Below are positions 3,065 through 57,016 of a stretch of 64,000 nt of DNA, piece by piece. The DNA is from Elsinoe ampelina (taxonomy: Eukaryota). The number at the start of each line of letters is the position of its first letter. Position 1 is the stretch's first letter. The stretch is taken from NCBI GenBank assembly GCA_010093995.1, contig ML992502.1, positions 2,110,541-2,174,540 of the forward strand, in the 5' to 3' direction. The notes below the pieces were generated by a model that saw only the letters and a list, made by a program, of their open reading frames with translations, was not told where the DNA came from and made no database searches. A program made the translations under genes and the position numbers.

Positions 3065-6000
3065 CTACCTCCTCTCTTAAGCGTATTTACCCTTAAATAC
3101 TATTATATATTATTTATTAATCTATTTTAGCCTTAGCTTATCTATATAAGAGTCTAGATAGTTACGTAGCACATTAGCTACTCCTTTAAGATTGTTAATT
3201 AGCTACTAGGTAAGATTCTCTAGATAGCCTTTCTAGCTTATATAAGTAACTAGCTTTCCTTGCAGTAAGTATATATTAATTATGTTATTTACCTTATACT
3301 TCTCTTTACCGTTGACCTCTATCGGAGGTAGTTCTTTAAAGGCTTAGCCTAGTAAGGGGTTATTTAGGTGTTTAGTAAGTAGGTCGGCGTAAAACACTAG
3401 ATAAATCCTTTATAGAGAGGCTAGTAAATCGAGCTTATATACTAGTAGTAATTGTTTCTTAAGAATCTTATAGAGACTAACATACTTTAGTAGTAGCTTT
3501 AGATTGCCTTATAGCTAAAGGTTCTTCGTCGATAGCTAAACTAAATCGCTAGCCTCGAACTCTATTAGCTAGCGGTGCTTATTAGCTTGTTCTACTATCC
3601 GTAACTACGTAATAGCAAGGTTAGCCTTAGTAATAGCTAGTGCCTCTTCTAGTTGCTTAGCAAGTGTGCGGATGTCGACCTTATTTAGCTTAGCTCTTGT
3701 TAATAGTATATTAGAAGGGAGCTAAAAGCTTAGCCTTAGCTTATACTCTCTAGTAACCTTAAATAGCAATAACTTAGTACTCTCTAATAGGTTAACGTTA
3801 GCGGAGAATTCTGCTACTAGTAGAACAAGTGTCTAATTACTAAAGCGTATAGCGTATAAATAGATAACTCGCTTAAACTTGCAATTTATAACTTCTAATT
3901 AGCCCGTCACGAAAATCCTAAGCCTAGAAAGCTAGAACTACTAGAACTGCTAGAACTATAGAGTATTTCGCTATTATCGTGCTAGGAGATCTAGTAGTTC
4001 TAGCTTTTCTACGCCTTGCTAGGCCTACTAGACTCGCTAAGTGCCTACTTTAGAACTAGTTTGTCTACGGAAGTAGGTAATTTATAGACATAGTAGGCCT
4101 ATAAAGGTTCTAGGTTATAGGTTTCTATATCGATCTACTTTGTTAGCCGAATTAGATAGGAAGATTACTATATAAAATCTGTAAGACTAGCACTATATAA
4201 CTTAACTAACCTAGCTATTCTAACGTTAGTTATGTCTTTAGCTGCCTTGCTTCTTCTACCTCTTTAAGCTATTTCTCCTCCTACGCTGTATTCTAAAGCA
4301 TGTTATATGTATTAAAATCTGCTATGTTATTAATAAACTTAAGCGAGGAATCTTTAGGAGTATCTTTATCTACTAGTATAACGTGTATAATTAAGTGTAC
4401 TTACGTTAGGGAGTATATCCGCCTACCTCTAAGCGTCCTACCTCTCCCCGCTATAGTTAATACCTAGGGCTTAATTACTATTATACCGTGTATATAGTCT
4501 GCCTTACTATTATGCTTATAAGGCAGAAAAAGGTCTATAAGAACACCGGTGTACTATCGGCAGTAGAGTAGACTAGTACCCTTAATGTCCTCTACTGTTA
4601 GTATATAGCATAGCTTTGCTAGTAACTTACTATCGAAAGCTAGTAACTCTCTCGTCTACTCTTACGAACTAGGTGTTAAGCTAGATTACTATTCCTATAC
4701 CTAGAGCTAGTTATATCTCTAGTTTCCCGGCCGGTTCTACTAGTGCTTAGCGCAACGTATAAACACTTACTCCTTAGCGTTAGAATTGTTAGTATTATTG
4801 CTAGATAGCCGATACATTTATAAAGCTATATAGAGCTTTACTCGTAATAGTAGAGTCTACTTCGAGTCTACTTCGAGGCGGTCTAACCTATCTAAATTGC
4901 TAGTTTATACTTCTCTAATGTCTTAATTGTCTTAACGAATAGTTTAATAACACTTCTATAGGAAAACTACAATTATCTAGGACAGTAACGAGCCTTTTAG
5001 TATTAGAATAAGCCTCTCGAGCTCCTCTACTATTCGCTACTAATCTAGGCCCTTTAAAGGCGTAGACTAATCCGAACGAGCCTATCTAAACGCTATCTAC
5101 ACGTCGACTAGTATAACCGTTAGGGCGGGGTTAGCCCCTTTAGGTTTAGTACTATACTAGGGTTTAGGTTAGCCTCTAGCTAGCGTAGTGCCGCTAAGGG
5201 CTTAGTAGTACTAGCACTAGCTCCGCACCGTAGCTATAATAGCACTACACTAGCACTAGGTATAGGTTAGGTCGTATATATTCTAGACGTAGTATAGTAC
5301 TAGGTTAGGTTAGTAGATAAGTAGTGTAGTGCTATTAAGTCCTTAGCGTACCCTTACTAGCACCGCACTAGAGTTACTATTCTTATAGTAAATTCTTATA
5401 GCAACTGCTATGTCCTATAACTCTTGTTACTTTTCTACTCTAAATACTTAAAGTTATAGTAGGTAAAGGATACTAGAGAGAAGCAAAAGTTATTAATTAT
5501 TAACTCTTATATACAATTACGACCTAATAGTAATTTATAGAAGATTAACCTAATTAACATTATCTATATAACCCCTATAAGCCTATTTTACATACTTAGC
5601 TAGTAAGCCGTATACTACCTAGAACTAATACCTTATTATCTTATTATCTGCTTTATCCGGAGAATATTCTATTCTTAGTAAGTTTACCCTTATATAAATT
5701 ATAACCCTTAACTAGTAAACTAGAGTACTAAAGCTATTAGGCAGAGTCTAAGACTAGAATAATTAGTTCTAGGTAGTTTAGCCTTCCTACTAACTTATAG
5801 TACAGTTGCGGATTGCCTTAATGCTATTAGATTACTAGTTAATAGTAAGTATAAGGCCGTCTAGGGCCTTAATCTCTACCTAAAGGTTATTAATAAATTT
5901 ATAATAAGTAATATTAGCCTAACGAATAATAGAGAGGCAAGTAGTAGATATAGTAGTAGATTTGCTTAAATTCTAGTAACTATTAGTATAAGTTATACTA

Positions 6001-6199
6001 TAGCAATATAAAGGCATACTAGATAGTTGTTTAAATGTTCCTAAGGAGAGAAAGAAGTAACTTAGCTAATAATCTACTTATATCCCTTAGTATAACAATA
6101 GCTATTATTTAATAATAGCTATTGTTAGTATTGTTGTTTTTTTATAATAGACAATAGCTATTGTCTATATTGTCGTTCTTATAATAGGTAACGCTAGAT

Positions 6200-7489
6200 A
6201 TATATACCTTTTAGTTGCTATTTCTTCTTCTTCCTCTTAAATCTCTCTTTCTTGTCGTTTAATACCTCTTTCTATAATGCCTCCTTCTTATACTTAACTC
6301 TACCCTAACCTAGCAGATCTAATCCCCTTTTAGCCTTATAAGATAACTCCTAGCAACCGCACTAGGCCCTTATACCTACGTTAGTATAAAGCCTACATCT
6401 GCTATATAACTCTTATATATCTTAACTTTAATAACAACTACAAAATCTAAGCCGAACATATCTATAATAACTATAGAGGTTTAGTACTTTACTATAAAGC
6501 CTGCCGCACTTATAATACCCCTTATAACTTTATAGGTGTTCCTAATCTAATCTTTCTCTATAATCTAACGAATATTAGTATAATATCTTATAGACTAATA
6601 ACATCTTCGACCTAATTAACATATAGTACACTATTAATTGTCTTATTCTTAACAGAAGAGCAGATCTACTCTTACTCTTTGCTATACGCTATAATGTTAA
6701 ACATAAGTAAGAGAAGTTAAATTATATCGACGATAGTAATAATAGTGTTTCTTCTAACAACTAATCTAATTAAAGTAGCGTAGTTAAAGCGTTAGCGAGC
6801 TAACAGCTTTAGATAGTTATTAATGATATAGACTTATACTTTATAAAGACTTAATTACGTTACCTCTTCCCGTAAGTAACTAAAATTAACTATAATAACG
6901 GCATATATAAGCTCTTAAAGTAGAAGTATTTATATTACCTCCGGCTGCACTAGTAGTTGTATTACTACCCTAGGTAGTACTATTAGTACTAGTAGTAGAA
7001 GCACCTCCCTTGTTGTCCCTTTTACTATTAGTATTATTCTAGAAAGTAACTTAACTATTATTAGGCTTAAACCTAGTAAGGAAGTTAGAAGTATAATAAG
7101 GTAGATATTAGTAATAGCATAGAGAGTAGCGTTAGTAATAAGTTAGCTAAGGTCGTAGGTGCTATAGTAGGGGTAGTTATTAAGGTTAATAATAAGGAAA
7201 GTAGCGCGGAGATTAGTTATAGCTTTAGCCTTTATATTATAGTCGATCTATACAATTTTCTTATTAACGTTTTTGTAAGTGAATCTAGTATAACTAATAT
7301 AGATACGAATATAGTTATATTAAAGATACTAGCGGGCAAGGGAATAAGCTTCCTTAGGGTAGCTAACGAAGGAAGACTATTAGTATTAGTAGGTAGAATT
7401 ATATATAGTAATAGAGAAGGTATACGCGGAAGTACTTTAGAGTAGGTGTTAGTATAGATACTATAAGAGCGTTATTACTCGGAGGCCAT
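6200..7489 (-). pseudogene. Unknown cargo gene of the hAT element (RIP-degenerate)
   Basis: ATGGCCTCC start near 7489. The de-RIP reading is protein-like (SFVGYPKEAYSLARQYLQYDHIRIHIGHTGFTYKNVNEKIVWID..). No recognisable domain; ends approximate. Confidence 0.4.
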
Positions 7490-7534
7490 TAACTAGATAC
7501 GCTTAGAATACTAGCCTCTAACCTTAGTAACGTT

Positions 7535-9950
7535 ATATAGTAGATCTTTGTCCTTATTATGCCCTTCTTCCTCGTTAACCTTTTTGTTACTTAAACTATA
7601 AGTAGTAATATCTCTAAAGTTATTACTTATGCTATCTATCCTGCTATTAGTATTATTATTAGTAGTAGTAAAATTGTCCGTCTTAGCTAATTAAATATTT
7701 TAAAGATTATTTTCTACTAGCTTAGAGACTATAATTTGTCAGATTATCTATAGAAGTAGTCTATACCTTTAATTGCTAATAATATTCTTCGCTATATTAA
7801 AAACATATTTAATATCTACACCGGCGATTAGTATTATAAAAACATTATAAGTAATATAAGCTAGTTATAGGAATAAGTGCTTATTTTCTTTCTACTAAGA
7901 AAGAATATTAAATTCTAATATTTCCTATATAGGCGAAGTTCTAAGGTAATTCTCCCCTTCTATTCTTATTATATAGACGTCGCTCTACTCTTATAAAAGT
8001 ATATTATCTTAGCTAGATACTAGAGGTATAAAGCTACTCCCTGTGTTTAATAAGAAAGGCTTCTTAAACTAGTAAGTAATAGACAAGGCTAGTAGAGGAG
8101 GTAGGAGAGTAGTTTAAGAAGGGTAGGTATTATTATAGTAATTAAGATAGTTAAGGAACTATTTATAGTAAAGTAATTTAAAATATAGTTCCTATAAAGC
8201 ATGCTTATACGTACTAAGTTTCTAAGTTAGATCTAAGATTATACTATAATTAAACAAGAAACCTTAACCTCTACTTATTTACTTATAATACTTAGAAAGC
8301 TTAGTATAACTAGCTTTCGCTACATTTTACACAACTAATAGCTAGTCTAAGTTGTCGTCCTCTTCCTAAGTAGACTTAACTATATTAAGGAAGTCGAAAA
8401 GGGTATTATACATAAGCTATATATATTATACTAATAGCATATAAGACTAACTTAGCTAGTTAGTTATATCCTTAAAATTCTCTAGTATTTAGATAACAAT
8501 CTTTAGATATGTCTATTCGGCGTAGCTAAGGTAAAGACATTTTATATCTATATAATCGATAGATACTATGTCTTAATTAGCTAGCGCTTCGTTAGTTTAG
8601 GGCTTATATATAATTATAATCTCTGCGTTAAGCTGTTTATCGATAATTAGTTAAAGTTTAACAGCTCGCTTATATATATTATATGTTAAGTTCTAATAGG
8701 TATAAATGTCCTAAATAACTAAGAGTCGTTTACGAGGAGGTAAATATACTTAAAGGGATTTAAAGTATTAGTAGCGTTAAGGGGACTAGTTAATTATAAT
8801 ACAAATTACGTAGAGCTTTAAAATTAGTTAAAAAACTATAAGAAAGAACTATAAGAAATATAACTTACTTTATAGAGAGAATTCGGAACTAATAGAGTTA
8901 TTTAAATATTATAGAGATACTACTTCTTAAGCTTATTAGCTTTCTTATTGTCCTTAGTAGTTTCTAGCTATAGGGCTTAAATAATATCTTATATAACAAG
9001 ATTAATTATATAGGCTAGACATAGAATTATATTCTTAATAGAGAACTAGTATATACTCTTCTTCTTAAGACCTTATTATACTTTAGATTATAGAGTGTTA
9101 TTGTTACTTACATTATCTACTATAATAGTAAGAAGGCATATATTAATCTTTTTTTCATTTAGAACTCTTAGTAGTTCTATGCCGAGCGTAACTCTAGTAT
9201 ACCGTCTACTAATTAGTACAAAATCTAGTAGGTACTTATATACTTACTAGTTATTATTAATATAGTATACCTTTATAGCTATAAAACTTAGATAGTTATT
9301 CGTAGACTAGCTGTCTAGTATAATTAAAACTTTTGTCTAACTACTAAGATTAGTAAGAAGATTAGACTAAATGTCCTTATAGTGCTCTTTTAATAGCCCT
9401 AAGGCCTATGTCCGACCTAGAACATTAGTATATAGCTAGAGGAAATATATAAATTAGAGAAAGAAGGAATTATTAACTATTTAGAATAACTAATTACAAT
9501 TAATAAGGACCTTAATAAGCTCTTTTTTAAATTGTTCTAGAGAGAATTATAGTATATAAGATATAGTGCTAGTAGCGTTTACTTTTAATTATATTAGAGC
9601 TATCTAAGCTACTAATTATTTATAGCTAGGAGATTTTATATTCTAGTAGCTTTAGCGTCTAAGATGTTTTATTAGGTGTTTATTACTAATCAAGTTTATT
9701 ATTAGGTGTTATAAAGCTCTACTATAGTAGAGACAATACATAAGAGGTATTCTATTAGTAAGCTTAGTACCTTTATTAAAGTTGGCCTAAATAACTCTAT
9801 AGCGAGTTATAGAATTCTAGTTTAGTAGGTTTCGTATTCCGCTAACCCTTGATTTACTACCTATTAATGTTATAGGCTACTATGTTTTTTAGGCTTATAT
9901 AGCTAGCTATTCTTTAAGTAGTATATTTAGTTAGTAGAGTAGATAGCTAA
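7535..9950 (-). pseudogene. hAT transposase (RIP-degenerate, intron-containing)
   Basis: C-terminal dimerisation domain after de-RIP: DILSWWKENEHLFPQLARIARDVFAIPIAGVDVERVFNMAKDIIGDRRHRL (~7910-7755). Intron GTAAGT...CTAAT..AG at ~8868-8816. 5' end approximate. Confidence 0.85.
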
Positions 9951-10259
9951 CAATTTTAATAGTTTTATAGAATTAAGTAGAGAATAGATTGTCCTAGTAA
10001 TTAATATAGAACTCTTTAAGCTTGTAGGGGAGAGATAGTAGTAGCGTAACAACTTCTAAGAGTATCTATAGTTAAGGATTAACTAAGTCTTTATTAAACA
10101 CTAATATTTTAAGAGTAGAGATATAGAATATTACTAGCTATATAACAAGGAGTAGAAGACTATAAGAATGCTCTATAAAAATCTATTAGCTACTTTTAAT
10201 TTATAGATTAAAAAAATTTTAATAGTGTAGAACTAGAAAGCTACTAAAACTATAGTCTA

Positions 10260-11553
10260 ATTTTCCTAACTTAAGGTTAATCTATTTATTCTTATCTATA
10301 TTGTCCTTACTCTTACTCTTCTTATTATTATTACTACTCTTATCTATTGCCTTATTATTATCTTTATCCTAATTCTCTTTATTAGAATTGTTAAAGTCTC
10401 TAGTAGTAACTACTTTATAGTATATTTTAGCTACTTCCTTAGTCTCGTACTTGTCGGGTTCCTTATTAAAAAGGTCCTTAATCTTAGAGTTATTCTTAAC
10501 TTCTTCTTTAACCTTATTATTACTATACTTAATATAGTAATTATTAGATTTAAGTAAAATATTGTTATTCTTGTACTTAAATTCTAGTTTAGGAGTAGGT
10601 TTATATTTGCTTCGATAGATTAGTATATAACTATAAGAAATAACTATAAGAAATAATATATACCTAATTATTCGCTTATACTACTTAGAGTTTAGTAGGT
10701 GTTATATTCTTAATAAACTTCTTAAACTTAGCTTAGTTACTATTATTATAGTTACTAGTATTATATAGTAAGTTAATACTATTATAGTAGATCTTATAGG
10801 TCTATTTCTTAAGAATTCTACTAGTACTAAGAAGATGTTTTACTTAGCAATTCGAGAATATATTTGTCTCGTTATAGAGCGCCTTCTTTATATAATTAGT
10901 AAGGAGTTACTTATAGCAAAGAAGAGTATTAGCTTTATAGATACTACTCTATTTTTAGTAGATAGATATAAACTTATCCTCTAACTATTCCCCTATATAA
11001 AATTAGTAGATATACTATAAGAATATACTATAAGAAATATACTACTTTACTAGGTATAATAGCAAGTCTCTACTATCTTCTTATATACTATATTAAAGGT
11101 AGCTTCTTTTTCCTTATCGGACATTACTTAGAATTCTTTAGAGTTCTTAAGTTTTGCCTTAAGTATACGTTTTATAGAGCAATTAGCATTACTAGTAGTA
11201 GTAAGGGCTTTCTCCTCTATACTAGCTTATATAGCGTAATTTCTTTACTAAATAGCTTACTAGGTATTACTAAGCTATGCTTTCTACTATAGAATTCTAA
11301 GGGGGTAGCTATAGTAAGGAGTTCTAGTATTCTAAAAGCGATTTTTAATCTAGTATTTAATCTTATTAGCCTCGGAATTAAAACTCTATAGTCTAGTTAG
11401 TATTTAACTATAAGAAGCATCTATAAGAATTACTCCTATTATAGTAAGGATTACTTCCTCTTTCTTAGTTATTTCTTTAGTCTTAATTACTAGAGTATTA
11501 GTTATCTCTTCCTCTTTACTAAAGATTTACTAATCTATAGGATTAGTAGACAT
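10260..11553 (-). pseudogene. Unknown multi-exon cargo gene with acidic N- and C-terminal tracts, divergent from the H3-like gene
   Basis: ATGTCTACT start near 11553 (MSTNPMDQQIFGEEEEM..). Three intron-like gaps near 11430-11390, 11050-10995 and 10662-10610. Asp/Glu-rich tail at ~10380-10300 after de-RIP. Confidence 0.45.
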
Positions 11554-11929
11554 TATAGATTAAGAATTAGTAGTGATTTATAAGAGAAGGTAGAATATTA
11601 AGTATAACAGGGAGTAAGATATAAGATATAAGTTTTATAAGGAAAAGATAAAGAGAGAAGAATTTAGCATTTCTTATACATATAGTAAATAGAGTAGCTA
11701 GAAATATAAGTAATAATAGGTATTAATCCTATTGTTGTACTAATATAAAGTTGTTAATATTGTTAATATAAAGTTGTTATAGTAGAGAATAACAATACAA
11801 AATTCATATTCTATATACTATTATAAATTCCTTAATAAGGCTTAATATCTTACTCTTAGTATTTTTGCCTTACTCTTCTTTACCTTTATAAACAAATTTT
11901 AACAATTAATTTGACAAATTTATATAGCT

Positions 11930-12511
11930 ATAGCTTATAAGAAGCAAGTAACACCTCTAAAAAGGGTAAAGCTAAGGAAGTAAGGCGCTAAGAAAACTGC
12001 TACTAAAAAGCCTACTATAGGTAGTTACGTAACAAAATTTAGACTAGTATTAACTAGATAAATTTGCTAGGTAAAGAGCTATAGGTTTAAGCTAGACAGT
12101 TAGTTTCTTATAGTAAATTCTTATAGTCTTATATCTAATATAGTATAGCTATTACTCTCTAAGAGATTTGTCGCTACTAGAAGACAACTAAACTTCTTAT
12201 ATATAAGCTTCTCTTCTCCTATGTTGTTTATAACATTACGTAAGATATTAAGTTAACACTTATAAGTAGAGATTTACGCTTTACACTAGATGCTATTAAG
12301 TATCTCTAGAAAGTAAGTAAGGTAATACTAGTAGAATATTTTAAAGGTATATTAACTATGTATTTAGAATATATAATACCTTATACTAATAACTATAGTA
12401 GACTATAATCTTAATACTATCTATGCTAAGTATTATACTATTATATAGAAAGACTCTTAGCTTACTAAGAAATATTATAACAAGTACTACTTACTTACTT
12501 TCTCTAATTAG
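11930..12511 (+). pseudogene. Histone H3-like (CenH3-like features) gene, RIP-inactivated, 2-3 introns
   Basis: De-RIP: MARKKQV..PKR.KPRKQGAKKTA.KKP / VK.HRFKPG / [36 protein letters not shown](+5 aa)DLRFTPDAIE.LQEASEA.LVEYFE / D.NL.AIHAKR.TIMQKDSQLA. Colinear with the H3 histone fold. GT..AG introns at ~12099-12148 and ~12348-12401. Confidence 0.9.
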
Positions 12512-15233
12512 TAAGACCTCTCCTCTATAATACTATAAGAATAGACTATAAGAAATAGGCAGGTTTATTTTTACATAGACTAGACTATTAAATTTCCTTT
12601 CTATAGACTTATTACAATACTAAAGTATAGTATAGTAGCTATAGTTACCTTAAAGCCTAACTAAGGCGTAGTACTATAACGTAGTATAATACTAGGATTT
12701 AACTCCGGTACTAATTTAGTATAGTGCTATTATAGTGTAGTATAGCGCTATTATAGTATAGTACTATTCTTACTTAACTACGGTGTAGTACTAGTGCTAG
12801 TGTAGCTCGGCGTAGTACTAGTACTAGTGCTAATATAGTAGAGTGTAGAGCTAGTGCTATTTAGTTTAGTACCGGGTGCTAACCTACTAAGAACAGCTTT
12901 ACACTAGTACTAGGGTCGGCCTTTAGCCGCCCTAACCCCGCCCTAATAGTTACACTAACGTCGATAGCCTAAGTTACTATAATAGAAGCTTCTAGCGCCT
13001 CTCTTCTATTAGCTAGAGTTAATATATATAGTATAAAGCTGCTATCGAAGGCTAATTTAAGGCTAAGTAGACGATAATTATATACTATAACTTAGTCCTT
13101 CTATCTGTTCTTCTTGTTTATTAGCTTAAATAGGTTCTTAATAAACTTAATATAGTTATACTTAGCATAATTAGAATCGAGGTTTAGGGCTACACTAAAG
13201 CGTTAGATAGCTTACACGAAATGCGTTATAGCGTGCTACTTTAGGAAGTTAAAATAATCTACTTTGTCTCTAGTTTAACTACGATATAGATAGTAAATTT
13301 CCTTATATTTATTTAGATAGAAAAGGGCGAGATCTATATACCTTAGCGTGTCTTTATTATAGCTCTTATACATTACAAGTAGTATAAAGTCTACTAATGC
13401 CCTTAGATAATATATAGCTTTCTCTATACATATCTTAGCTAGGAGAGGAATAAATACTAGTAGAAGTTAACGGAGTAAGCTTTTTTACTCCTTTCTAGTC
13501 TATTGCTTAACAGTAGAGAAGTAGCTAAACCTCCGTAGGCCTAGATACGCTAGAATGCCTATAAAACGGCGATTAATAATATTAAGCACACGTTCGGTAG
13601 AGAAGCGCTTATGTCTAGTAATCCTAGCCTACTCCGTAGCTGCCTTAAAGTAGCGTATTTCTAGGGTAGGTATTCTGTCCTATAGTATTAAGGTTGTCTA
13701 TCCGACGACGTATATAAGTACGCCCTTTAAGAGCTAATAGAGGATATCTAGCACTATAGCCTCGTAGATGTTAGTCTACTTATAGCCCTATACGAAGTAA
13801 TCGACATTATATACTAAATCTACACTTGCTATTACGCTCTATTACTATATTTAGATTTGCCTCCGCGTTAATATATAAGTATATAGCTCTACTCTCGCCT
13901 TAAGGTCTTCCCTTAGTTCTAGCTTAATTAGGCAAGTCGTACAATAGTAAAGAGACTTAACGCTAGTAATCTTAACCTACTCGGTATAATCTGTTATAAT
14001 AGCTACTATAATTAGGAAATATCTTCTAGTACTACTGTCCGAATAGACAATATTAACACCTTTACCTCTAACAATTTGCTTAATCGGATCGAAGATTCTC
14101 TTTATATACTTATAATAAACAGTTGCCTTCTATATTATATCGCTATTCTTTATAATAGGTAAGAGCCTTACTAGAAGCTAGCTAGGCTAGGTATTTCTAT
14201 TATAGATATATAAAGGCACATTTCCGATAGAAAGGTAGATAGTATAAGTAGTAAGGTCTCCTTAATAATTAGTTACCTAAGTTTAATCGCTTACGAGGAT
14301 AAGTAGTATAATAGTAGCACTATTAATATTTATACGCTCTTAAGCTTCCTACTACTAGTCTCCTAAAGCTAGGTTATTAAAAATTCACCTAGAGAATTTG
14401 TCTTCTACTACCTCTATAAACGTTTAAAACAGGCTATATACTATATCGTCCTTAAAGCTATAGTGCTAAAGAAAGAATTATATTATATCTATTACATTTA
14501 TATAGTAGAGAGTATAGCCTATAGCTCCTCGATTTATAGGTAGTTAGAATAAAGTCTTTATCTATGCTTCTATCTCCGAATAGTTATCTAATTTGTCTAT
14601 TTAACTACGAAGTTTGTCTAATATCTTAAAACTAAGCTAATCGGTTAAAGGCTAAATATATAAGTTATATAGGAGATAGGTAATAGTATTCTTACTAATC
14701 TTCTCTTCGAAGAGCTATTAAGTAAACATAGTATCTATTTCGTTTCTAAAAACATAGCTATAGTCTAGATCGTCTACGAACTAGACATCTATCTTAGCGG
14801 ACCTAGTCCTATAAGGGATTAGTGTTAGGAGTGTTTATATATGCTCTTTATAGTGCTACCTATACTTATAGTGCCTCCTCTACTCTTTAACTAGTGGCCT
14901 TCTCGTACGTCTATATAAAGTAGACTAACCTTCCTAAAGAAGATAGCTAACTCTTCCTTATTAAGTTCGCTAATAAAATAGAAAGGGCAAAGGCCGAGAT
15001 ATGCCCTTCTATCTCCTTCTTTTTCTCTCTTACGTAGTTCTCTCTGTCGATGCTATACTAGGGGCTAATAGTAGCCTTATCTACACGTGTAAAGCCTCTA
15101 TCTACTTTAGCGTTGCTCTTATTATTAAGGTAGACACCTAGATAGAGAGAGTCTTATACTACTCTTTCTTTACTTTGTTTATCTATGCCTTCTATCTATA
15201 TACCTTCTTCGCTATTTAAAGATATCTCCTCCT

Positions 15234-18200
15234 TAATTACGACTAGTAAGACAAGAGGTTAATTACGTCTATTTATTAAGATATCGAGACTTAGAAGAAG
15301 AGGAAGAAAAACTAGTATATAAAGCATACGTAATATCGAGAGCAAAGCGGCCGGAAGCCTAGGCTACGATACTAAGATTACATAACTAATCTAAACTAGA
15401 TTCTAACTAAATCTAGTTCGTATCTATCTCGTATTACTACTTCCCCTCTTAAGCGTATTTACTCTTAAACGCTATTATATATTATCTATTAATTTATTTC
15501 GGCCTTAGCTTATCTATATAAGAGTTTAGATAGTTATATAGCACGTCGGCTACTCCTTTAAGGTTGTTAATTAGCTACTAGGTAAGATCCTTTAGATAAC
15601 TCTTCTAGCTTATATAAGTAACTAGCTTCTCTCGTAGTAAATATATATTAATTATGTTATTTACCTTATACTTCTCTTTACTATTAACCTCTATCGGAGG
15701 TAGTTCTTTAAAGGCTTAGCCCGGCAAGGCGTTATTTAGGTGCTTAGTAAGCAGGTCGGTATAAACCACTAGGTAGATCCTTTATAGAGAGGCTAGTAAA
15801 TCGAGCTTATATACTAGCAGTAATTGTTTCTTAAGAATCTTACAGGGACTAATATGCTTTAGTAGTAGCTTTAGATTGCCCTATAGCTAGAGGTTCTTCG
15901 TTAATAGCTAAACTAAATCGCTAGTCTCGAACTCTATTAGCTAGCGGTGCTTATTAGCTTATTCTACTATCCGTAACTAGGTAATAGCAAGGTTAGCCTT
16001 AGTAATAGCTAGTGCCTCCTCTAGTTACTTAGTAAGTGCGTAGATGTCTACCTTATTTAGCTTAGCTCTTGTTAATAGCGCGTTAAAAGAGAGCTAGAAG
16101 CTTAGCCTCGGCTTGTATTCTCTAGTAACCTCGAATAGCGATAGCTTAGTACTCTCTAATAGATTAACGTTAGCGGAGAATTCTGCTACTAGTAGAACAA
16201 GTGTCTAATTACTAAAACGTGTAGCATACGAACGAATAACTCGCTCGAACTTACGATTTATAACCTCTAATTAGCTGTCTATTTATAGATACTCTATAGT
16301 AGATAGTTTAGTAGTAATCTTTAGGATTTAGTAGAGCCTCTTCTATACGTCGCTAACGAACTAAGGGCCGCAGTCCGAGGTAATACTATCTAGTAGACTA
16401 TATAGTTTCTACACGTAGAAGAATAATAGCTTAGTAGTCTTAAACGCTAAAGTGCTACCTTCTCCGGAGAAGTATAGAATTAAGTACTATTCCTTAGATA
16501 GGTAGTCGACGACATAGAGCACTACGTTATAGCCGTCTACTAGAGGTAGACTAGTAATAAAGTCTATAGTAATATATTACTATAGTCTTACTAGAATAGG
16601 TAATAGCGATAGGAGGCTAGCTAGTAAGCTATAGCGAGCCTTTAAGCACTTATAGTTATAACAGTTAGCGACGAACCTCTTAACGTTGCTATTGTATCTA
16701 AGGATATAGAAAGTAGACTTAATTATAGTAGCCATTTTAGTAGCTCCTCTATGTGTATAATTCTTTAATGTATAGACTTCTTAGATAACCTTTGCGGCTA
16801 TAGAGAAAGACACGATTAGTTAGCTATCGGCCTATAGTATTCTCTTTTTAATTGTAACATTAGTTAATAGTAACTATTTCCTCTTTAGGAAGGCTTCTAT
16901 TATATAGTAGATGCTACGAACTAACTTAAAGTTAGAGTCTCGCAAGTTAGCTCTAGCTACTTTATCGAATAGTAGTAAAGGTAGCTCTTCTAAGGCTAAG
17001 ATAGGTACTACGTAGATGCCTAGCTCGCGAGCTAAAATAGGCAGCGAAATAGGAGGTGAAATAGGCGGCGAACTAGTTTACGAACTAGATGCTAAACTAG
17101 ATCTTAGTTTAGCTTAAATTAGTAATTAAGTTTAGATACGACCTAGATTTAGTTCGTTAATAATGCGCTAATCTAGCACCTTGTATAGTAATAGCGTCTA
17201 GCGTAGATTAGAGTCTTCCTTCGAGCGTAGTACGTCTCTATTCCTTCTTATAAGTGTGTCGGCCTTACTATTAGCGGCGCTAGGCCTATATATAATCTTA
17301 AAGTTGAATTATGCAAGGTAGAGGGCCTAGCACACTTAGCGGCGTAATAGTTTCTAAGTCTTTATAAAGTGTATTAAGGATTAGTAGTTAGTAAGAACGT
17401 AAATAGCCTTATTAGATTAAGTACTTATAAGCTCGAGAGTCTACTCCTTAAAGGCTTAGACGATAGCTAGTAGTTCCTTGTCGTAGATAGTATAGTTACG
17501 TTCGGCTTTATTTATAGATTTACTAAAAAAGGTAATAGGCTAAAGAATGTTAGACTTGTTATATTATAATAGTTATATTATAATAGAATTCCGGCGGTAG
17601 TAGTGTCGAAGGCGTCTATCTTAAGAACTATCTATTTCGAGCAATCGAAGTGCGCAAGGATAGGCGCGCTTATAATAGTGTACTTTATACAATTAAACGT
17701 AGTAGTACACTTATCGTTCTATAGTATAGTGTCCTTCTTAAGTAGATTGTTTAGCGGCTTAGCGATAGTACTAAATCCCTTAATAAAGCGACGATAGTAG
17801 CTATAGAAGCTAATAAAGCTCCTTACCTAAGTAGTATTACTAGGGGCTAGCTGTTTCTACGCTTATATAGCTTCTACCTTCTTAGGATCTATCTTAACTC
17901 TATCTCGGCTAACGATAATACCGAGGTACTTTACCTCTATTAGGTAGAACTTGCTCTTCTTAATATTAGCGTTTAGGCCTAATTCGTAGAGCCTCTAGAG
18001 TACTAACTTAATATGCTCGGCATGTTCTTAGTAAGAGCTATTAGTGTAGATAAGAATGTTATTAAGATAGATTAACACGAAGCGCTCTAGTATATCGATA
18101 AAGTTGTAATTTATAAACCTCTACTATATAGTAGAGGCGTTAGTAAGGCCGAATAGTATTACTAGCTACTTGAAATTTCCTATGCATATAAAGAACATAG

Positions 18201-21200
18201 TAAGGTCCTTACTATCGATAGAGTTATAGAGGTAGTAGAAGACTTAGCGAATGTTAATCTTGCTAAACTACTTAGCTTTACTTACGCGTATAAGTGTTTC
18301 TTCGATAAGGGGTAGTAGATAGATGTCTCGCTTAGTTACCTTATTAAGGCTATAGTAATTAACGTAAAGATAGAGACTACTACCTAGCTTATAAACAAAG
18401 AGAATAGGCAAGGAATAGCTAGCTGAGCTTAGCGTAATAAAGCCTTTATTAAGGTACTTACGGATAAATAGCTCTACTATATTAAGCTCCTCTAGTAATA
18501 GGTAGCGAAGGAGTTTAGTGCGTAGTAGTTTAGCTCTATCCTTAAGTGTAATTCAATTGTCAAAATCTAGCCGATGTAGAGGGAGCATGTTAGATTACTC
18601 TTTAGAAAAGACATTAGTAAACTCTCGTAGCTTCTCTAGGAGAACTACTATAGAGTCTAGTTTTAGCTTAGAGGCTATCCGGCAGTAGTCCTTAATATTC
18701 TTTACTAAGATTATAAACACCTTATTCTTTTAGTATTTAGCTACTAATATAAAGGCAGTAGCGCTAATAAAAGCAATAGTCGGCTCTTCTTACTTAGTAT
18801 TACTTACGTAGGCAAGTATATAGAAGAACTTATACATTAACTAAGTACTATAGGAGATTAGCTTAAACTCTCTCTAATTTAGCTTAAAGTTCGACCTAAG
18901 AGCTAGTAGTCGATATAGTCTAGTTCGTCCTAACTTAGTAGCTAAGCTAGAGCCTAGTTTATAAGTTAAACTAGAACTAAACTAGTTCTAAACTAGAGTA
19001 GCAGCTTTGCCGAGTTAGATTCCTAGATCTAAGCTAGGCTTAGACCTAGATCCTAGCCTTTTAATTAGCTATAGTAGCTCCTACTTAATAACGACTAGTG
19101 AAAACTCTTCTTTGTACGTAACTTAGCCGTGCTTATAGTCGATAGTAGCTCTATTAGCCTTAAGCTAGCTAAGGCCGAGAATAATGTTAAAACAGCTAAT
19201 ATCTATAATATAGAAGGTAGTAAGAGCGTTTAGCTTGCTAGAGACAGTAGTAGTAAGAGAAACACTATAAGTAACTTACTCTATTAGAACACTATTATAA
19301 GCCTAAAGCTAAATAGAGCTAGCTAACGCTATAGGGTAGCTAAAGCTCTTTAGCTTATTAAGGACGTTATAATTGACTACGGCGCTAATAAGCGCGCTAG
19401 TGTTAATAAAGGCTTAGAGCGTAATAGTATAAGAGCAGTTATAAGAGTCGTAAATAGTAATAGGAGTTATAATAGCGGGGATATAGTAGCTAACGACGCT
19501 ATTTAGTAACTATATACCTCCGGATCTATCTCGAATTACTCTTATTCCGCTAGAGAATAAGACTTGTTCTCTAGCTACTTATTTCTCTAGTTAGAGAGGT
19601 TAGCAGACTTATAGTCCACTTCGGGTTTAAACTAAGGCTAAACTAGATCTAGTTTGTAAGCCGAACTAGTGTCGACTTAGTTGCTTAATTTAGCTAAGCG
19701 ATTCTAGAGCTGTTATATCTCTTCTATAGCACTAATACGTATAGGGCATATAGTAGCGTAAGTAGCCTTCTTTAAGGCGCTAGCTATACACTTAGTAGAG
19801 ATATAGCCGGGCTTACCGCATCTATAACAGGTAAGTGCCTAAGTTAGATAGAAGAGCTATAGAGCTCCTCTAGTAATAGAGTAGAAGGTAGCTAGAGCGG
19901 CAGGTATAGAGGTAGAATAAGACATACAAATTAGTGCTATAGTAGTGTAGCTTATAGCTAGCCTAGCGTATAGAGCTTAAGTACGCTTAGTAATAAGGTT
20001 ACTCTACTAAATGTTATAGTTAGTAGTATAAGCCTTCGCGATAAAGGTAGAGAGGTTATTAGTGTCGAAGTTAATAAGAGTAACACGTAGCTTATTAGAT
20101 ATTTTCTAGTATAGCTAATAGAGCTATTTATCCTTAGCGATCTTAGCATAGAGAGCATACTTATTAAATTCGCTAATAAAGGAGTTAAAAGAGGTATTAC
20201 GCTAGAAGAGGCTAGTAAACTAAGCGCGTATAGTAGCCTTATAGTTTAAATCCTTAAAGCGCTAGGCTAAGAGACTAAAAGCAGCTTTAATATTAAGAGT
20301 GTCGTTACTAGCGAAGTCTATAATAAGAGTATATACTTCGCTAGAGAGACGCGAATAGAGATAGGTAAACTAAGTAGCCTTAGTAAGGAAATAGTTAGTG
20401 TTAGCGCGTATCTTATTCTTTATCTAGTACTTAAAAACCTTAAACTGTTCTAGAGTACTACTAGAGAAGATAGTAGAGTCTAGTATCTTCTCTAATAATA
20501 TAACGCTATATATAGAAGAGGCTAGTATAGCGCGTTCTATCTTAGCTCTTAGCTAAGCTAGTTCGGTTTTAAGTTTACTAATATTAGCGAGATAGTACGC
20601 AGCCTAGGTAGTAAGATTATTAGTAGTACTATTAGCTATATCTAGTTTAATAAGGACGTTATTTAACTAGTTATATAGATTAAGAGTATTAGTATATACT
20701 AAGTTACACGTAGTAACCTATTTATTGTAGGTAGACTTAATAAAGGTAAAGGCCTTACGTAGAGTAGTTATACTATCTATCTCTTATAGCCTCTTCTTAA
20801 GGTTAGTATTGCTAAGGCGAATAAGGTTATAATAGGCCGATTAGACTAGTTCGTTATTATTATTAGTAGGGAGTAGAGGAATCTTACTTACGTAGTAATT
20901 GTCTTTACTATAGTTAGAACGAGCTATACTTAGCATAGTTAGTCGTAAATAAATAGTGTAAAAAGTTAACGCGTAACAAAGAGAATATTAAAAATTTTAG
21001 CTAGTAGTCTACTTCCTTTAAGAGTTATCTATAACTTAACTTATTACCTTCTTCTTATATCTTCGAGGTTTATAGTATTAACCTATATAGTAGCAGCGAG
21101 GATCTATTATAGTGTACGCGGGAACTATAGTTGTAATAGCTTCTTTTTTAATTCTTTAATTCTTTATAAGTAGTAGTTATTAGTAGTTACGTAAGTAGTA

Positions 21201-44700: not shown

Positions 44701-47700
44701 TTAAAGAGTACTAGGATAAGTACTATTATAAGTCTAAGCTTTAGCTCCTTAAAGGCCTACCTATATCTCTTATTAAAGATAAAGCTAGTTTTCTTTTTTG
44801 TAAGGTTAGATATTAGTATAGCTACTTTAGAGAACCTCTTAACAAACTTATAGTAGTAGTTAAAGAATCCTAGTAGTGCTTAAACCTCCTTAACTATAGT
44901 AGGTTCCGGCTAGTTATTTACTAACTTAATCTTCTTCGGATCGGGTCTAATACTATTAGTAGATATAATATAGCTTAGAAATTATATCTTATATTTATAA
45001 AACTTATACTTAGAGAGCTTTACTAGTAGGTCTTTTTCTTTTAGTTTCTATAGTACCTTATAAATATGTCTTATATATTTATTATACGTCTTTAAGAAGA
45101 TAATAATATTATCTAAATATACTAAGATAAAGTTATTAAGGTATTCTTATAGAGTATTATTAATTAACTCTTAGAAGGTTATAGGAGTATTAGTTAACCT
45201 AAAGAGTATAATAAGGTACTTATATAAACTCTATTATATCCTAAAAGCTGTTTTTTACTCCTTACTCTCCTTTATTTATACTTAATAATAAGCGTCCCTA
45301 ATATTAATTATAGTAAACTATTTAGCTCTAAGTAGTTAGTCTTAAAGTTTATTAATCCTTAGTAGGGGATAGTAATTCTTCCTAGTAAGTATATTAAGTT
45401 TCTAGTAATTAATATATATTTATAATATTCTATCCTTTTTAGGTATAAAAAGCACTCTATACGTAATAGGTAATTTTAATAGTTATATAAATCCTTTAAG
45501 TAAGTACTTATTAATATAGTTCTTAAGGACATTCTCTTCTTATTTTAATAGTAGTATAAGACCTTAATAGTATATTAGGGATTTACTCTCTTTAAAGAGT
45601 ATTTTATAATTCTATAGTTTATATTAGAGTAAGGCTATAATACCTTTTCTTTCTTTAAATAAGTCCTTAAAGTCTTTATATTCTAGTAGAAGTACTTAAT
45701 TACTTACGCTAGTAATAGCTCTAACTATTAGTTATACCTATACTATCCTTATAGTTAGTATCTATAGAGCTAATTATACTCTCTACGTCCTATAATTACA
45801 CTTAGGGAATTTAAGTGTTTCTTTAATCTAGTCTACGTCTGGATTATATTATTAAAGCTAGTCTATGCTAAGTACTATATTATACTATATATCTACTATA
45901 TTAATTAATTGTTTTTCTATATATGTTTTAATTTTAATTATAATATTTTATAGTTCTTAAGTAACTTTCCTATTCTTTCCTATAGGGATTCTATCTACTA
46001 TAGTAAGTAGGTAAGGTAACTCCTTCTAGTATTAATAAGGTTTAAGCTAATTAGCAACTATTATAGAGACGTAGCTATAGTTAGCTCTTAAATCTATTAT
46101 TGCTCTTACCTTATTTCCTTATATCTAGACTTCTAGTATAAAGTAATTTAACATATAGATCTTTATTATATTAAGGCTTTAGCTAGTATTATTGTCTTAC
46201 CTTATTAGGTAATAACTAGCTAGTTTTTTATTATTGTAGCTCCTTAGATAAGTAGCTAATCCCTTCCTATACGTATCTACTATTAGTACTATATCTATTA
46301 GGCAAGTTATGTTTTGTTATTGTTTAATATAGCAAGGTAAACTTCTAGCGCCTAAGTCCCTTAGTAACTATAAAGTCTAATAATTCTCTACTAGTTATAC
46401 TAAGTAGTGTCGTATACTTATATTAGTATAACTATTCCTTCTAGGTATAGCTAGGTATTAGTATTAAAGATAAAAGTAAGTTATATAGATTTGTCTTATT
46501 ATGTCCTATTCTAGTAGTAGGTATATATTATTATATAATTCCTCTATATCTCTATAAGGTATACTTTAAGTTATCTGCCTAGTAGTAGTATATTGTCGTT
46601 GTTAGATAAGTTCTTATTTATATTATTATACTATAGTTATTTAGTGTATTTTTTGTTATATTTCTCTTCGTCGCTACTACCTCTAGTATAGTTATAGTTA
46701 GTAAGGCTATACTAAGTATACTCTTGTACTTAGCTATAGGAAATAGTACTACCTATTTTAAATACTAAGAAGTCTATAGTATATTTAAGACTAATAGTGT
46801 CTTCTCTAAGTATATTATATAAGTAGATAGTATAGTACTATTTATAATCTAGATTTATACATTTCTAGAGCGATATATAATATACCTTTCCTTATAGTTC
46901 GCTATAAGAGCTAAAGGTAAAGTTACTATATTATTATATAGTACTTATGTCCTAATACTTCGTTTTAATAATTATATATTAGTAGTTGTTACTAACTATC
47001 TTCTAAGGTTAGTCAATATTACTACTAATTATAGAGAGCTTTTCTAGGTTAAACTTCTAGTCTAGCTATTTCGTTAGTTACTTACGTTTAGATAGCTTAT
47101 ATAGAAACTAACTAGATCCTTGCTTATCTAATAAGTAAATATAATAAGAGTTATTATAACATACTATCTATAATAGCGTTATATAATAGCTTTATTGTTT
47201 ATTATTAGTTATAGAGATATTAAGTATAACATCTAGAGAGAGTTCTATTATCTCTTAAGTTATTATAGACTTCTTCTATATTTTCTTACCTACGCTAAAG
47301 GTTATTAGGTCTTCTATAGTAGTATTAGCCTTTTTCTCTACTAGCCTAGTAACTATTATATATAATCTATTAGCTAGCGCCCCTTATCGGTAGTTCCTAG
47401 CTTAATATCTAAGTCTTTTATATTTAAAATATAGATTGTCTTATCTATACTTCTCTCTCTCTTTTCTACTAAGGAACTTTCCTCTATAGCCTTAGCCTTA
47501 TACCTATAAGAGGCAACCTTTGTATATAGCGTTAAGTTCTATAGAGTCTCTATAGTTTCGAGAGAAACGCGTATATCTAGTATTTACCTTATATTCTCTA
47601 TAACGTTCTATGTGTCGTTTATAGAGTTAGTTATTAATAGTAATTATAGTGTCTACTAGTTCTTATAGACTATTAGGTAGCTTAGGTATTATCTAGTCTT

Positions 47701-55519: not shown

Positions 55520-57016
55520 ATGTCCCCCTCCCACTCCTCTCCTCCTCCCCCACCCCTCGAATCTCGCATCCTCCGCAAGCTAGACACCAACCTCCTCCCC
55601 CTCGTCTGCGCCCTCTTCCTCCTCTCCTTCCTCGACCGCTCCAACGTAGGCAACGCCCGCACCGCCGGCATGGAACGCGATCTCCACTTCTCCCCCAACG
55701 GCAAAGGGGCACACACCTACGACTGGCTGCTCACGATCTTCTACATCAGCTACATCTGCTTCGAGCCACTGATCCTCGGGTGGAAGGTCGTCAAACCGCA
55801 CATCTGGGGTGCCGGCGTCACTTTCTCCTGGGGACTGATATCTACGCTCCAAGCCGTCACGACGTCCTGGTCAGGCATGATGGCATTGCGTTTCCTGCTT
55901 GGAGCAGCAGAGGCTGCGTACGGGCCAGGAATAATCTATTTATTGACATTTTTCTACTTGCGAAGGGAAATCGGGCTGCGTATCGGGGTGTTCCTCTCCA
56001 TGGCCCCCCTAGCAACCTGCTTCGCCGGCGCCCTCGCCTACGCCATCACCCGCGAACAAAGCAGCGTAGCCCCCTGGCGCCTCCTCTTCATCGTCGAAGG
56101 CATCCCCACCGTCCTCATGTCAGTCGTGGTCTGGCTCTTCCTCCCGGACGGCCCACACAGCGCTCGCTTCCTCACCGCAGAGGAGCAGGCCGTCGCGGCG
56201 GACAGAGAAGTGAGGCAGGTCGGCACGACGGCGCGCATCGGCGGCCTGAAGTGGACGGACGCCAAGGAGAGTTTCCTCGACGTCAAGTCGTGGTTGCAAG
56301 CGCTGATGTACTTCTCGTGCAACACTGCGTACGGGAGTCTGCCGGTTTTTCTGCCGACGTTTTTGCAGGAGAGTTTGGGGTTTGGTAGTATTGATGCGCA
56401 GAGATTGACGGCGCCGCCGTATTTCTTGTCGTTTGTGATTACGATTTTGACGCCTTGGGTCGCGGATAGGTTGCAGCAGAGGGGGTGGATGATTGTGTTG
56501 CTGTCGTGTGTCGGGGCCGTGGGATATGTGTTGTTGGCCACCGTGGAGGATGTGTGGGTGAGGTATTTCGCGGTGTTTCTGGCGGCGGGAGGCGTGTTCC
56601 CTGCGATTTCGAATGTGTTGCCTTGGGTGACGAATAATCAGGGGAGTGAGACGGGGAGAGGAGTGGCGGTCGTGGTGTTGAATCTGGTTGGGCAGTGTGG
56701 GCCGGTGCTCGGGACGAGGGTCTATCCTACGAACGAAGGGCCGAGGTATATCAAGGGCCATGCTATCTGTGCTGGTTTCTTGTTCTTCAATGCTTTTGTC
56801 GCACTGGTGTTGAGGACGTATTTGAAGTGGCAGAATGGAAAGTGGGATCGACAATTTGGGACGGTAGAGGAGCAGAAGGCGAGAGGAGTGCAGAGGGAGA
56901 CAGTGATCGAAGAGAAGCAAGAGGCTTTGGCAGAAGAGAAAGGAGAGGAGAAGGGGGCAGTGAATGAAGAAGTGGGAACGGAGAACTACGGGCCTCTGTA
57001 TAGATACGTACTATAG
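55520..57016 (+). CDS. MFS transporter, anion:cation symporter (Dal5/Tna1-like) family, 498 aa, intronless
   Basis: RKLD..LLP, FLDRSNVGNA, LRFLLGAAEA, PWRLLFIVEG, LPDGP..ARFLT; about 12 hydrophobic segments. Confidence 0.93.
   Translation: MSPSHSSPPPPPLESRILRKLDTNLLPLVCALFLLSFLDRSNVGNARTAGMERDLHFSPNGKGAHTYDWLLTIFYISYICFEPLILGWKVVKPHIWGAGVTFSWGLISTLQAVTTSWSGMMALRFLLGAAEAAYGPGIIYLLTFFYLRREIGLRIGVFLSMAPLATCFAGALAYAITREQSSVAPWRLLFIVEGIPTVLMSVVVWLFLPDGPHSARFLTAEEQAVAADREVRQVGTTARIGGLKWTDAKESFLDVKSWLQALMYFSCNTAYGSLPVFLPTFLQESLGFGSIDAQRLTAPPYFLSFVITILTPWVADRLQQRGWMIVLLSCVGAVGYVLLATVEDVWVRYFAVFLAAGGVFPAISNVLPWVTNNQGSETGRGVAVVVLNLVGQCGPVLGTRVYPTNEGPRYIKGHAICAGFLFFNAFVALVLRTYLKWQNGKWDRQFGTVEEQKARGVQRETVIEEKQEALAEEKGEEKGAVNEEVGTENYGPLYRYVL

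Follow-up and report, generated by a model that had tools for sequence, protein, structure and literature searches.

A RIP-inactivated hAT transposon of Elsinoe ampelina carries a split histone H3-like gene that was probably once an intact, divergent H3 variant

Histone H3-like genes have been described as cargo of hAT transposons in two lineages of Dothideomycetes. In Pyrenophora tritici-repentis, a 5.6-kb hAT element contains a transposase, a central open reading frame (ORF) and an H3-like gene (H3L; PTRG_00559), with 26 near-identical, expressed copies (PMC3538342); this H3L is altered in its N-terminal tail and in the helices of the fold, and was judged to be neither H3 nor CenH3 (Manning et al., 2013, PMC3538342). 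In the Mycosphaerellaceae, H3-like copies that repeat-induced point mutation (RIP) has damaged lie in hAT elements of Pseudocercospora fijiensis, P. musae, P. eumusae, Cercospora zeae-maydis, Sphaerulina musiva and S. populicola (PMC6710886). These elements are approximately 9.5 kb long, show a target-site duplication (TSD) of 8 bp, are confined to AT-rich, RIPped blocks and reach tens to hundreds of copies, with 784 copies in P. fijiensis; their H3-like copies are intronless, all carry RIP-type stops and are regarded as passengers that turned into pseudogenes (Dhillon et al., 2019, PMC6710886). Here we describe a hAT element of Elsinoe ampelina, at positions 5109-12957 of a 64,000-nucleotide stretch of contig ML992502.1 (the window), which holds a split H3-like gene, also called H3L, at 11930-12511 (+). 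We consider it very likely that the element is a RIP-inactivated copy of a multi-copy hAT family with H3L as its standard cargo, and that H3L was once intact and encoded a divergent variant of H3. The originating event was most likely of the same kind as those published for P. tritici-repentis and the Mycosphaerellaceae. In the literature searched, no report of an H3-carrying hAT element for Elsinoe was found, and neither 'hAT' nor 'histone' occurs in the available text of one Elsinoe genome paper (PMC7259788).

The Elsinoe element was set beside the published description of that of P. tritici-repentis. Both are multi-copy hAT elements with terminal inverted repeats (TIRs), a dimerisation domain and an H3-like ORF between their ends, and a figure legend for the P. 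tritici-repentis H3L mentions introns in expressed sequence tag alignments, the Elsinoe gene also being split (PMC3538342). They differ in that the P. tritici-repentis copies are near-identical, unRIPped, expressed and 5.6 kb long, whereas the Elsinoe element measures 7.85 kb and has been killed by RIP. With the Mycosphaerellaceae elements (PMC6710886) it shares the 8-bp TSD, the location in AT-rich, RIPped DNA and an H3-like copy stopped by RIP. However, the Mycosphaerellaceae copies are intronless retrocopies, one or two to each element of approximately 9.5 kb, in which no dimerisation domain is recognisable, whereas the Elsinoe gene is single, is split by two frame-changing GT..AG gaps, and lies in an element with a recognisable dimerisation domain. 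The TIRs also differ beyond the initial TAG, reading TAGACCCCGTAG in P. fijiensis, TAGAGGTTAGAA in C. zeae-maydis and TAGT(A/G)TAACC in the Elsinoe element. Fourteen motifs of 11-13 nt taken from the element ends and from H3L, some being reverse complements of others, had no occurrence in six Mycosphaerellaceae consensuses, an exact-word test that is weak for diverged DNA.

The ends of the element are well defined. In a search of the window for TIRs and an 8-bp TSD that tolerated transitions, the 7,849 bp at 5109-12957 were the single outstanding candidate. The left TIR (5109-5134, +; TAGTATAACCGTTAGGGCGGGGTTAG) and the right TIR (12932-12957, -) are each 26 nt long and are identical at 23 positions, the other three being transition mismatches. 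They are bordered by TSDs at 5101-5108 (ACGTCGAC) and 12958-12965 (ACGTCGAT), which are equal but for one C>T. Short TIRs of hAT elements are of the YARNG type, and both TIR starts found here (left TAGTA, right TAGTG) agree with this consensus. On the minus strand, 7727-7960 encode the C-terminal hAT dimerisation domain of a transposase (PF05699 Dimer_Tnp_hAT, E 7.6e-5, profile positions 1-79 of 84), with a match of 22.9 bits against a curated Pfam cut-off of 21.4. Three hallmarks of a hAT element are present, namely an 8-bp TSD, short TIRs and a transposase with a C-terminal dimerisation domain. In 8000-11929 (-), where an RNase H-like core or a BED finger was sought, no Pfam match was obtained even at E 10, the sequence being so degraded by RIP that such domains may have become unrecognisable.

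H3L runs antiparallel to the transposase, with approximately 450 bp between it and the right end of the element. Its raw translation, with stops as X, matched the Pfam Histone family (PF00125) at 12154-12342 with E 0.018, below the gathering score. When the core of exon 3 (12151-12345) was compared with PDB by phmmer, the best 60 of 158 matches were all canonical H3 (E 1.7e-5 to 5.4e-5), the first being H3.2 (E 1.7e-5), and a local hidden Markov model (HMM) of 36 H3 proteins matched exon 3 with an i-E of 3.6e-10 and exon 4 with 0.065. The sole other match of this HMM in the window, at 45066-45134 (E 6), was taken as noise. Compatibility with RIP was scored codon by codon, by listing the residues that can be reached by reverting T>C and A>G. 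The raw translation of exon 4 gave no H3 match in PDB, and its homology appears with this RIP-aware scoring only: 22 of 28 codons are compatible with H3 residues 108-135, a level reached by one of 103,832 background windows, which was the gene itself. For exon 1, five of the first six codons are compatible with MARTKQ, as is also the case in 21 of 103,964 background windows.

The homology to H3 extends over tail and fold, and shifts frame across two GT..AG gaps, at 12099-12148 and 12347-12401. Exon 1 (11930-12028, +) encodes the N-terminal tail, with a start codon that now reads ATA and one TAA stop. It is followed by 42 nt (12029-12070, +; GTAACA..TAG, with a branch-like TATTAAC) that may be a first intron or an in-frame insertion in the tail; the branch site and acceptor are good but the donor poor, reading through it keeps the frame but meets two stops, and splicing from another donor, at 12021, would leave the wrong phase. 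Exon 2 (12071-12098, +) reads V-K-S-Y-R-F-K-L-D plus the first base of the T45 codon and corresponds to VKKPHRYKPGT. Removal of intron 2 (12099-12148, +; 50 nt, GTTAGT..TCTAAT..TAG), which interrupts codon T45 in phase 1, restores K-P-G-T-V-A-L-R-E exactly. Exon 3 (12149-12346, +) covers alpha-N to alpha-2, with PF(S/P)R, a 5-residue insertion in loop 1, DLRF and four TAA/TAG stops. Intron 3 (12347-12401, +; 55 nt, GTATAT..TACTAAT..TAG) spans the frame change between exons 3 and 4 and falls in codon D107 in phase 1, and its removal restores F-(E/K)-D-x-N-L; among the indels listed for the copies of a second organism (organism B, below), those at 12378-12383 cluster within it. Exon 4 (12402-12511, +) encodes the end of alpha-2, alpha-3 and a C-terminal tail approximately six residues longer than that of H3, with two internal TAG codons and a terminal TAG. 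H3L is thus homologous to H3 over tail and fold and is interrupted by at least two gaps of the spliceosomal type. A preliminary description of the locus, made from the sequence, had placed an intron-split gene of the H3 fold within the TIRs and 8-bp TSD of a hAT element, and the Pfam and phmmer matches, the TIRs and TSD and an empty site (below) bear this out. That description referred to the precedent in P. tritici-repentis, which is real (PMC3538342); it missed the second precedent, in six Mycosphaerellaceae (PMC6710886), and the fact that the gene copy itself is dead.

The region has been exposed to extreme RIP. Across the first 52 kb of the window, GC content is 23-38% per kb, with a TpA/ApT index of 1.98 and a (CpA+TpG)/(ApC+GpT) index of 0.24; the corresponding values are 1.86 and 0.26 for the hAT element, and 0.63 and 1.23 for a GC-rich gene island at 52.5-61.5 kb. 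Within H3L, the disabling changes are without exception transitions of the type C>T or G>A: the start codon has gone from ATG to ATA, and each of the seven internal stops is a TAA or TAG of the RIP type, five of them at Q positions of H3, one at R50 and one at P122. With its start lost and seven internal stops, this copy cannot make protein. However, RIP does not account for all of its divergence. Compared with canonical H3.2 over 133 aligned positions, H3L is identical at 54, RIP-compatible at 47 and incompatible at 32. Over 90 positions of the fold, compared with the best-fitting full-length H3 in the 100-200 aa range of a collection of 137 proteins, 41 are identical, 32-33 compatible and 16-17 incompatible, and there is in addition the insertion of five codons.

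The incompatible positions include Q69 (TCC, which can only derive from S or P codons), T108 (TAT, from Y, H, C or R codons only), R9/K10/S11 and R27. The replacement of PFQR that had been described for this gene therefore stands, with S or P as the possible readings. Neither ARKS motif can be recovered by de-RIP, as P-(P/L)-K-R stands around K9 and A-(T/A)-K-K around K27, which upholds the earlier statement that both are unrecognisable; the near-invariant sequence of canonical H3, with ARKS at K9 and K27, is thus not that of H3L. What H3L retains is K4, the PRKQ block, GVK(36) and DLRF, and the H3-like start that had been reported is found as RIP-compatible readings, M-A-(R)-K-K-Q...P-R-K-Q. 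The loop 1 insertion of five residues, also reported before, is seen in the phmmer alignment; it comprises 15 nt between DIK and DLRF, is in frame, and is the sole gap in the alignment of exons 3 and 4. No stop of a type other than RIP, and no exon frameshift, was seen in H3L. Since RIP cannot erase a stop codon, the extension of the C-terminal tail by approximately six residues predates RIP. Approximately one quarter of the residues are inexplicable by RIP, yet non-RIP stops and frameshifts are absent, which suggests that the progenitor was an intact, divergent H3 variant.

Other copies of the element were sought among public contigs, aligned to window positions 4500-13500 at 80% likeness in four runs (X1 to X4), of which X3 is from organism B. 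One contig each in X1 and X2 joins 5102 to 12960 and skips 7,857 nt, that is 7,849 + 8, so that the element and one TSD are exactly absent. The DNA flanking the hAT copy (4500-5100 and 12966-13500) occurs in two RIP-diverged versions, with 0 versus 11-17 differences per 140-172 nt, including 0 versus 13 per 152 nt, and as the second of these is without the hAT insertion, the empty site is paralogous. In X1, summed contig depth, read here only as 'many copies, H3L region included', is 5,220-9,904 in 26 of 26 bins inside the element, compared with 234-457 in four flank bins. The steps fall at the TIRs: the bins of the left flank stand at 234-319, and depth climbs to at least 5,508 between bins 4801-5101 and 5102-5402 and falls between bins 12627-12927 and 12928-13228, the latter standing at 457. 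Over the bins that contain H3L (11724-12626) it is 6,404-8,996, like the remainder of the element, and in organism B the same bins reach 15,327-42,913, with high depth across 5102-12626. Many copies of the family, H3L region included, are thus present both in the source organism and in organism B, and, as in the published H3-carrying hAT elements of Dothideomycetes, the H3-like coding sequence sits between the TIRs of a multi-copy element. The preliminary description would have been undermined had other copies of the family lacked the gene; the H3L bins are as deep as the rest of the element, with one deletion derivative. In this derivative, found in contigs of X1 and X2, 11205 and 12390 are connected by 22 other nucleotides, and most of H3L is gone. 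Run X4, which we assumed to be RNA, gave one unrelated contig on the left flank and none on the element, and has no bearing on expression. Comparison of the element with the window by blastn yielded no more than four matches, all short (35-59 nt) and of low complexity, and a metagenome scan with a degenerate TIR pattern gave no match.

The variable places of the element in X1 comprise 478 transitions and 3 transversions, which is the signature of RIP. With transversions at 3 of 481 variable places, decay other than by RIP since amplification has been negligible, and because transversions are nearly absent among the family copies, the non-RIP differences of H3L predate amplification. We propose that an H3-type gene, and not a CenH3 gene, would have been transduplicated into a hAT element, as the most likely origin. 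While the family was spreading, H3L would have been intact and its product a divergent variant of H3, the progenitor presumably having no ARKS at K9 or K27, PF(S/P)R in place of PFQR, a loop 1 longer by five residues, a residue other than T at position 108 and a longer C-terminal tail. H3L would then have died along with the transposase through RIP.

No close relative of H3L emerged from protein searches. Among 20 matches to exon 3 at E<=0.001 in representative proteins, most were fused or tandem canonical H3, and three (P0015, P0017 and P0020) were divergent H3-like proteins. P0015 and P0020, which cover nearly the complete fold, have 36-38 incompatible positions and are less compatible with H3L than is canonical H3, while P0017, a fragment of 79 aa, has 20 incompatible positions and 22 gap columns. 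A profile of P0020, exon 3 and P0017 retrieved 7,901 H3-type proteins; the 120 listed were mostly canonical H3, with no named P. tritici-repentis H3L or CenH3 among them. A further search for exon 3 homologues gave six candidates at longer protein lengths, none of them scored, and no candidate at near lengths, and a metagenome scan with back-translated DLRFTLDAIK gave two matches, both to unrelated proteins. P0017, P0031, P0032 and P0034 are public H3-like fragments of 79 aa on contigs of 365-640 bp. In P0017, loop 1 is long, RW replaces RF, and there are substitutions of the RIP type (EICHYQKSTKLLIYKLLF); these indicate that RIP-damaged H3-like copies of another family exist in public data.

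A repeated module links intron 2 with other parts of the element. The doublet TTCTTATAG-N4-TTCTTATAG occurs seven times in the window, where none is expected, and all seven copies are within the hAT element (5380-5401, 8836-8857, 10631-10652, 11015-11036, 11408-11429, 12105-12126 and 12533-12554). In five of them a GTNNGT-type site lies 3-5 nt upstream and CTAAY 7-8 nt downstream, followed by AG, and each of these five is oriented in the sense direction of its local gene, with one in H3L intron 2 (+) and four at 8.8-11.4 kb on the transposase strand. The remaining two are at 5380 (+) and directly 3' of the H3L stop (12533, -). The copies in intron 2 and just past the stop form a 30-nt inverted pair (12104-12133 and 12526-12555), 90% complementary, around H3L exons 3 and 4. 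Stop density per frame on the minus strand, used as a test of whether the module marks introns, gave an indecisive pattern. Introner-like elements of Dothideomycetes were reportedly described by van der Burgt and colleagues in 2012. The present module resembles them in being a unit of approximately 45 nt common to intron 2 and at least four other sites of the element, in which a donor of the GTNNGT type is combined with two units of TTCTTATAG at a spacing of 13 nt and with a branch-like CTAAY site; it differs in that its copies are seen inside the transposon only and not in host genes of the window, and in that splicing is predicted. Going by its sequence, the module looks like an element-specific family of introner-like introns, but it may equally be a protein-binding repeat. 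The recurrence of the module elsewhere in the element weakens the inference that the introns of H3L prove capture of a genomic H3 gene.

Several points weigh against reading the locus as a RIP-killed member of a family whose cargo was an intact H3 variant. The transposase is recognisable by its C-terminal domain only, intron 1 is doubtful, and intron 2 may not be an inherited H3 intron. The H3.2 reference behind the count over 133 positions is of the animal/plant type, rebuilt from a fused protein (P0003), and is not the host H3 or CenH3; the named fungal H3s compared, which give 19-20 incompatible fold positions, are from basidiomycetes and zygomycetes and not from ascomycetes. Summed contig depth does not equal copy number, and the variant tables of the contigs are incomplete, with 547 differences and 20 indels unshown. 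Finally, an intact progenitor is argued from one RIPped copy and from these tables, and should be taken as probable.

A first alternative bears on what the progenitor did, and is compatible with its having been an intact variant. The H3 variant may have been kept because it was helpful to the transposon, through dilution or blocking of silencing by H3K9me3/H3K27me3 or through marking of chromatin for insertion. The absence of both ARKS motifs, which RIP did not cause, fits such a role, as does a frame that stayed open through approximately 24% protein divergence with no non-RIP stop and, in the alignment of exons 3 and 4, with the in-frame loop 1 gap alone, and H3-like cargo of hAT elements is now found in a third Dothideomycete lineage. 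Two transversions in H3L are listed between copies of the source organism and of organism B; both are conservative, being V/L at 12071 and, prior to RIP, D/E at 12234, but they are too few to serve as a test of selection. Moreover, the family was thoroughly RIPped in the source genome anyway, and Dhillon et al. (PMC6710886) favour the passenger view for the Mycosphaerellaceae copies. We regard such a role as unlikely. The preliminary description, whose observation is confirmed and whose interpretation is partly supported, had likewise suggested that the histone could resist silencing or guide targeting. A wider version would make H3L part of an old, transposon-maintained lineage of H3 variants across the Dothideomycetes (Pleosporales, Mycosphaerellales and Myriangiales), kept because it blunted silencing by H3K9/K27 methylation and with introns derived from the introner-like module; this strikes us as quite unlikely.

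It could also be supposed that the cargo is a captured host CenH3, its odd features being simply those of CenH3. CenH3 is recognised by a longer loop 1, by the lack of Q69, F85 and T118, by a tail that diverges strongly and by its placement in a tree (PMC4359364). Of the five sequence features among these, H3L shows two: its loop 1 is longer than that of H3 by five residues, as seen in the HMMER alignment, and Q69 is replaced by S or P. Its longer C-terminal tail is a further likeness to CenH3/CENP-A, and T108 is replaced. The numbering of the third residue in PMC4359364 is ambiguous, so that both candidates are given here, T108 of EDTNL, which is replaced, and the threonine of RVTI, which is kept (ACT). 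Against capture of CenH3, F85 is also retained (TTT in DLRF), and the N-terminal tail, which is described as highly divergent in CenH3 (PMC4359364), aligns lengthwise with that of H3 from M1 to T45 through the RIP-compatible readings MAR-KQ, PRKQ and (T)GG-VK-(H)RFK(P)(G)T. No CENP-A or Cse4 chain is among the best 60 of 158 PDB matches to exon 3, the closest solved chains being canonical H3; the gene is borne by a transposon and is not at a host locus; and the H3L of P. tritici-repentis was itself found to be 'neither H3 nor CenH3' (Manning et al., PMC3538342). A CenH3 origin is thus very improbable, and H3L is best described from its sequence as an H3-like variant with some CenH3-like traits and not as CenH3. 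The CenH3-like features claimed earlier accordingly hold for the long loop 1 and the missing Q69, but not for F85, the RVTI threonine or the tail. The motif TIMQKD, which had been counted among them, is undiagnostic, as it is one of several allowed readings (ATA may derive from I, M, V, T or A codons and TAG from Q, W or R) and the aligned H3 chains of the animal/plant type read TIMPKD.

That H3L is a recent transduplicate of an ordinary host H3, with all its oddities due to decay after RIP, is extremely improbable and was rejected: although the region is heavily RIPped and RIP alone explains 47 of the 79 aligned positions that differ, C>T and G>A changes cannot produce the 32 incompatible positions among 133, the 15-nt in-frame insertion or a C-terminal extension that was there before RIP, and with so few transversions (3 of 481 variable places in X1) the non-RIP differences predate amplification, from a progenitor that was probably open and spliced. 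The neutral decay of a host H3, which had been named beforehand as an outcome that would overturn the preliminary description, is therefore not what is seen.

The surroundings of the element hold further transposon remains. Approximately 750 bp past its right end is a RIP-degraded Plavaka-type transposase (13716-14525, -; PF18759, E 1e-28), and at about 15740-18330 (-) lies a RIP-degraded polyprotein of the Ty3/gypsy type with Pfam matches to RVT_1 (E 9.1e-11), RT_RNaseH (1.1e-9), Integrase_H2C2 (6.1e-4) and, weakly, the Tf2-1 SH3 domain. In the gene island, a major facilitator superfamily (MFS) transporter gene at 55520-57013 is intact and assigns the window to the Ascomycota; at 90% identity, its product falls into the same cluster as a protein named for Elsinoe batatas.

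As the combination of a hAT element with an H3 gene has already been published twice, the Elsinoe copy alone is no discovery. It does make Elsinoe the third fungal lineage in which hAT elements have H3 cargo, with TIRs and a gene structure that differ from those of the published families, and this recurrence raises the question of whether H3 cargo is useful to hAT elements or merely easy to capture. The cargo here appears to have been a specific variant, which before RIP had already lost both ARKS motifs and had a CenH3-like loop 1, and the idea that it acted against silencing would be worth testing. The intron-like module common to H3L and the transposase strand may in addition bear on how introns spread.

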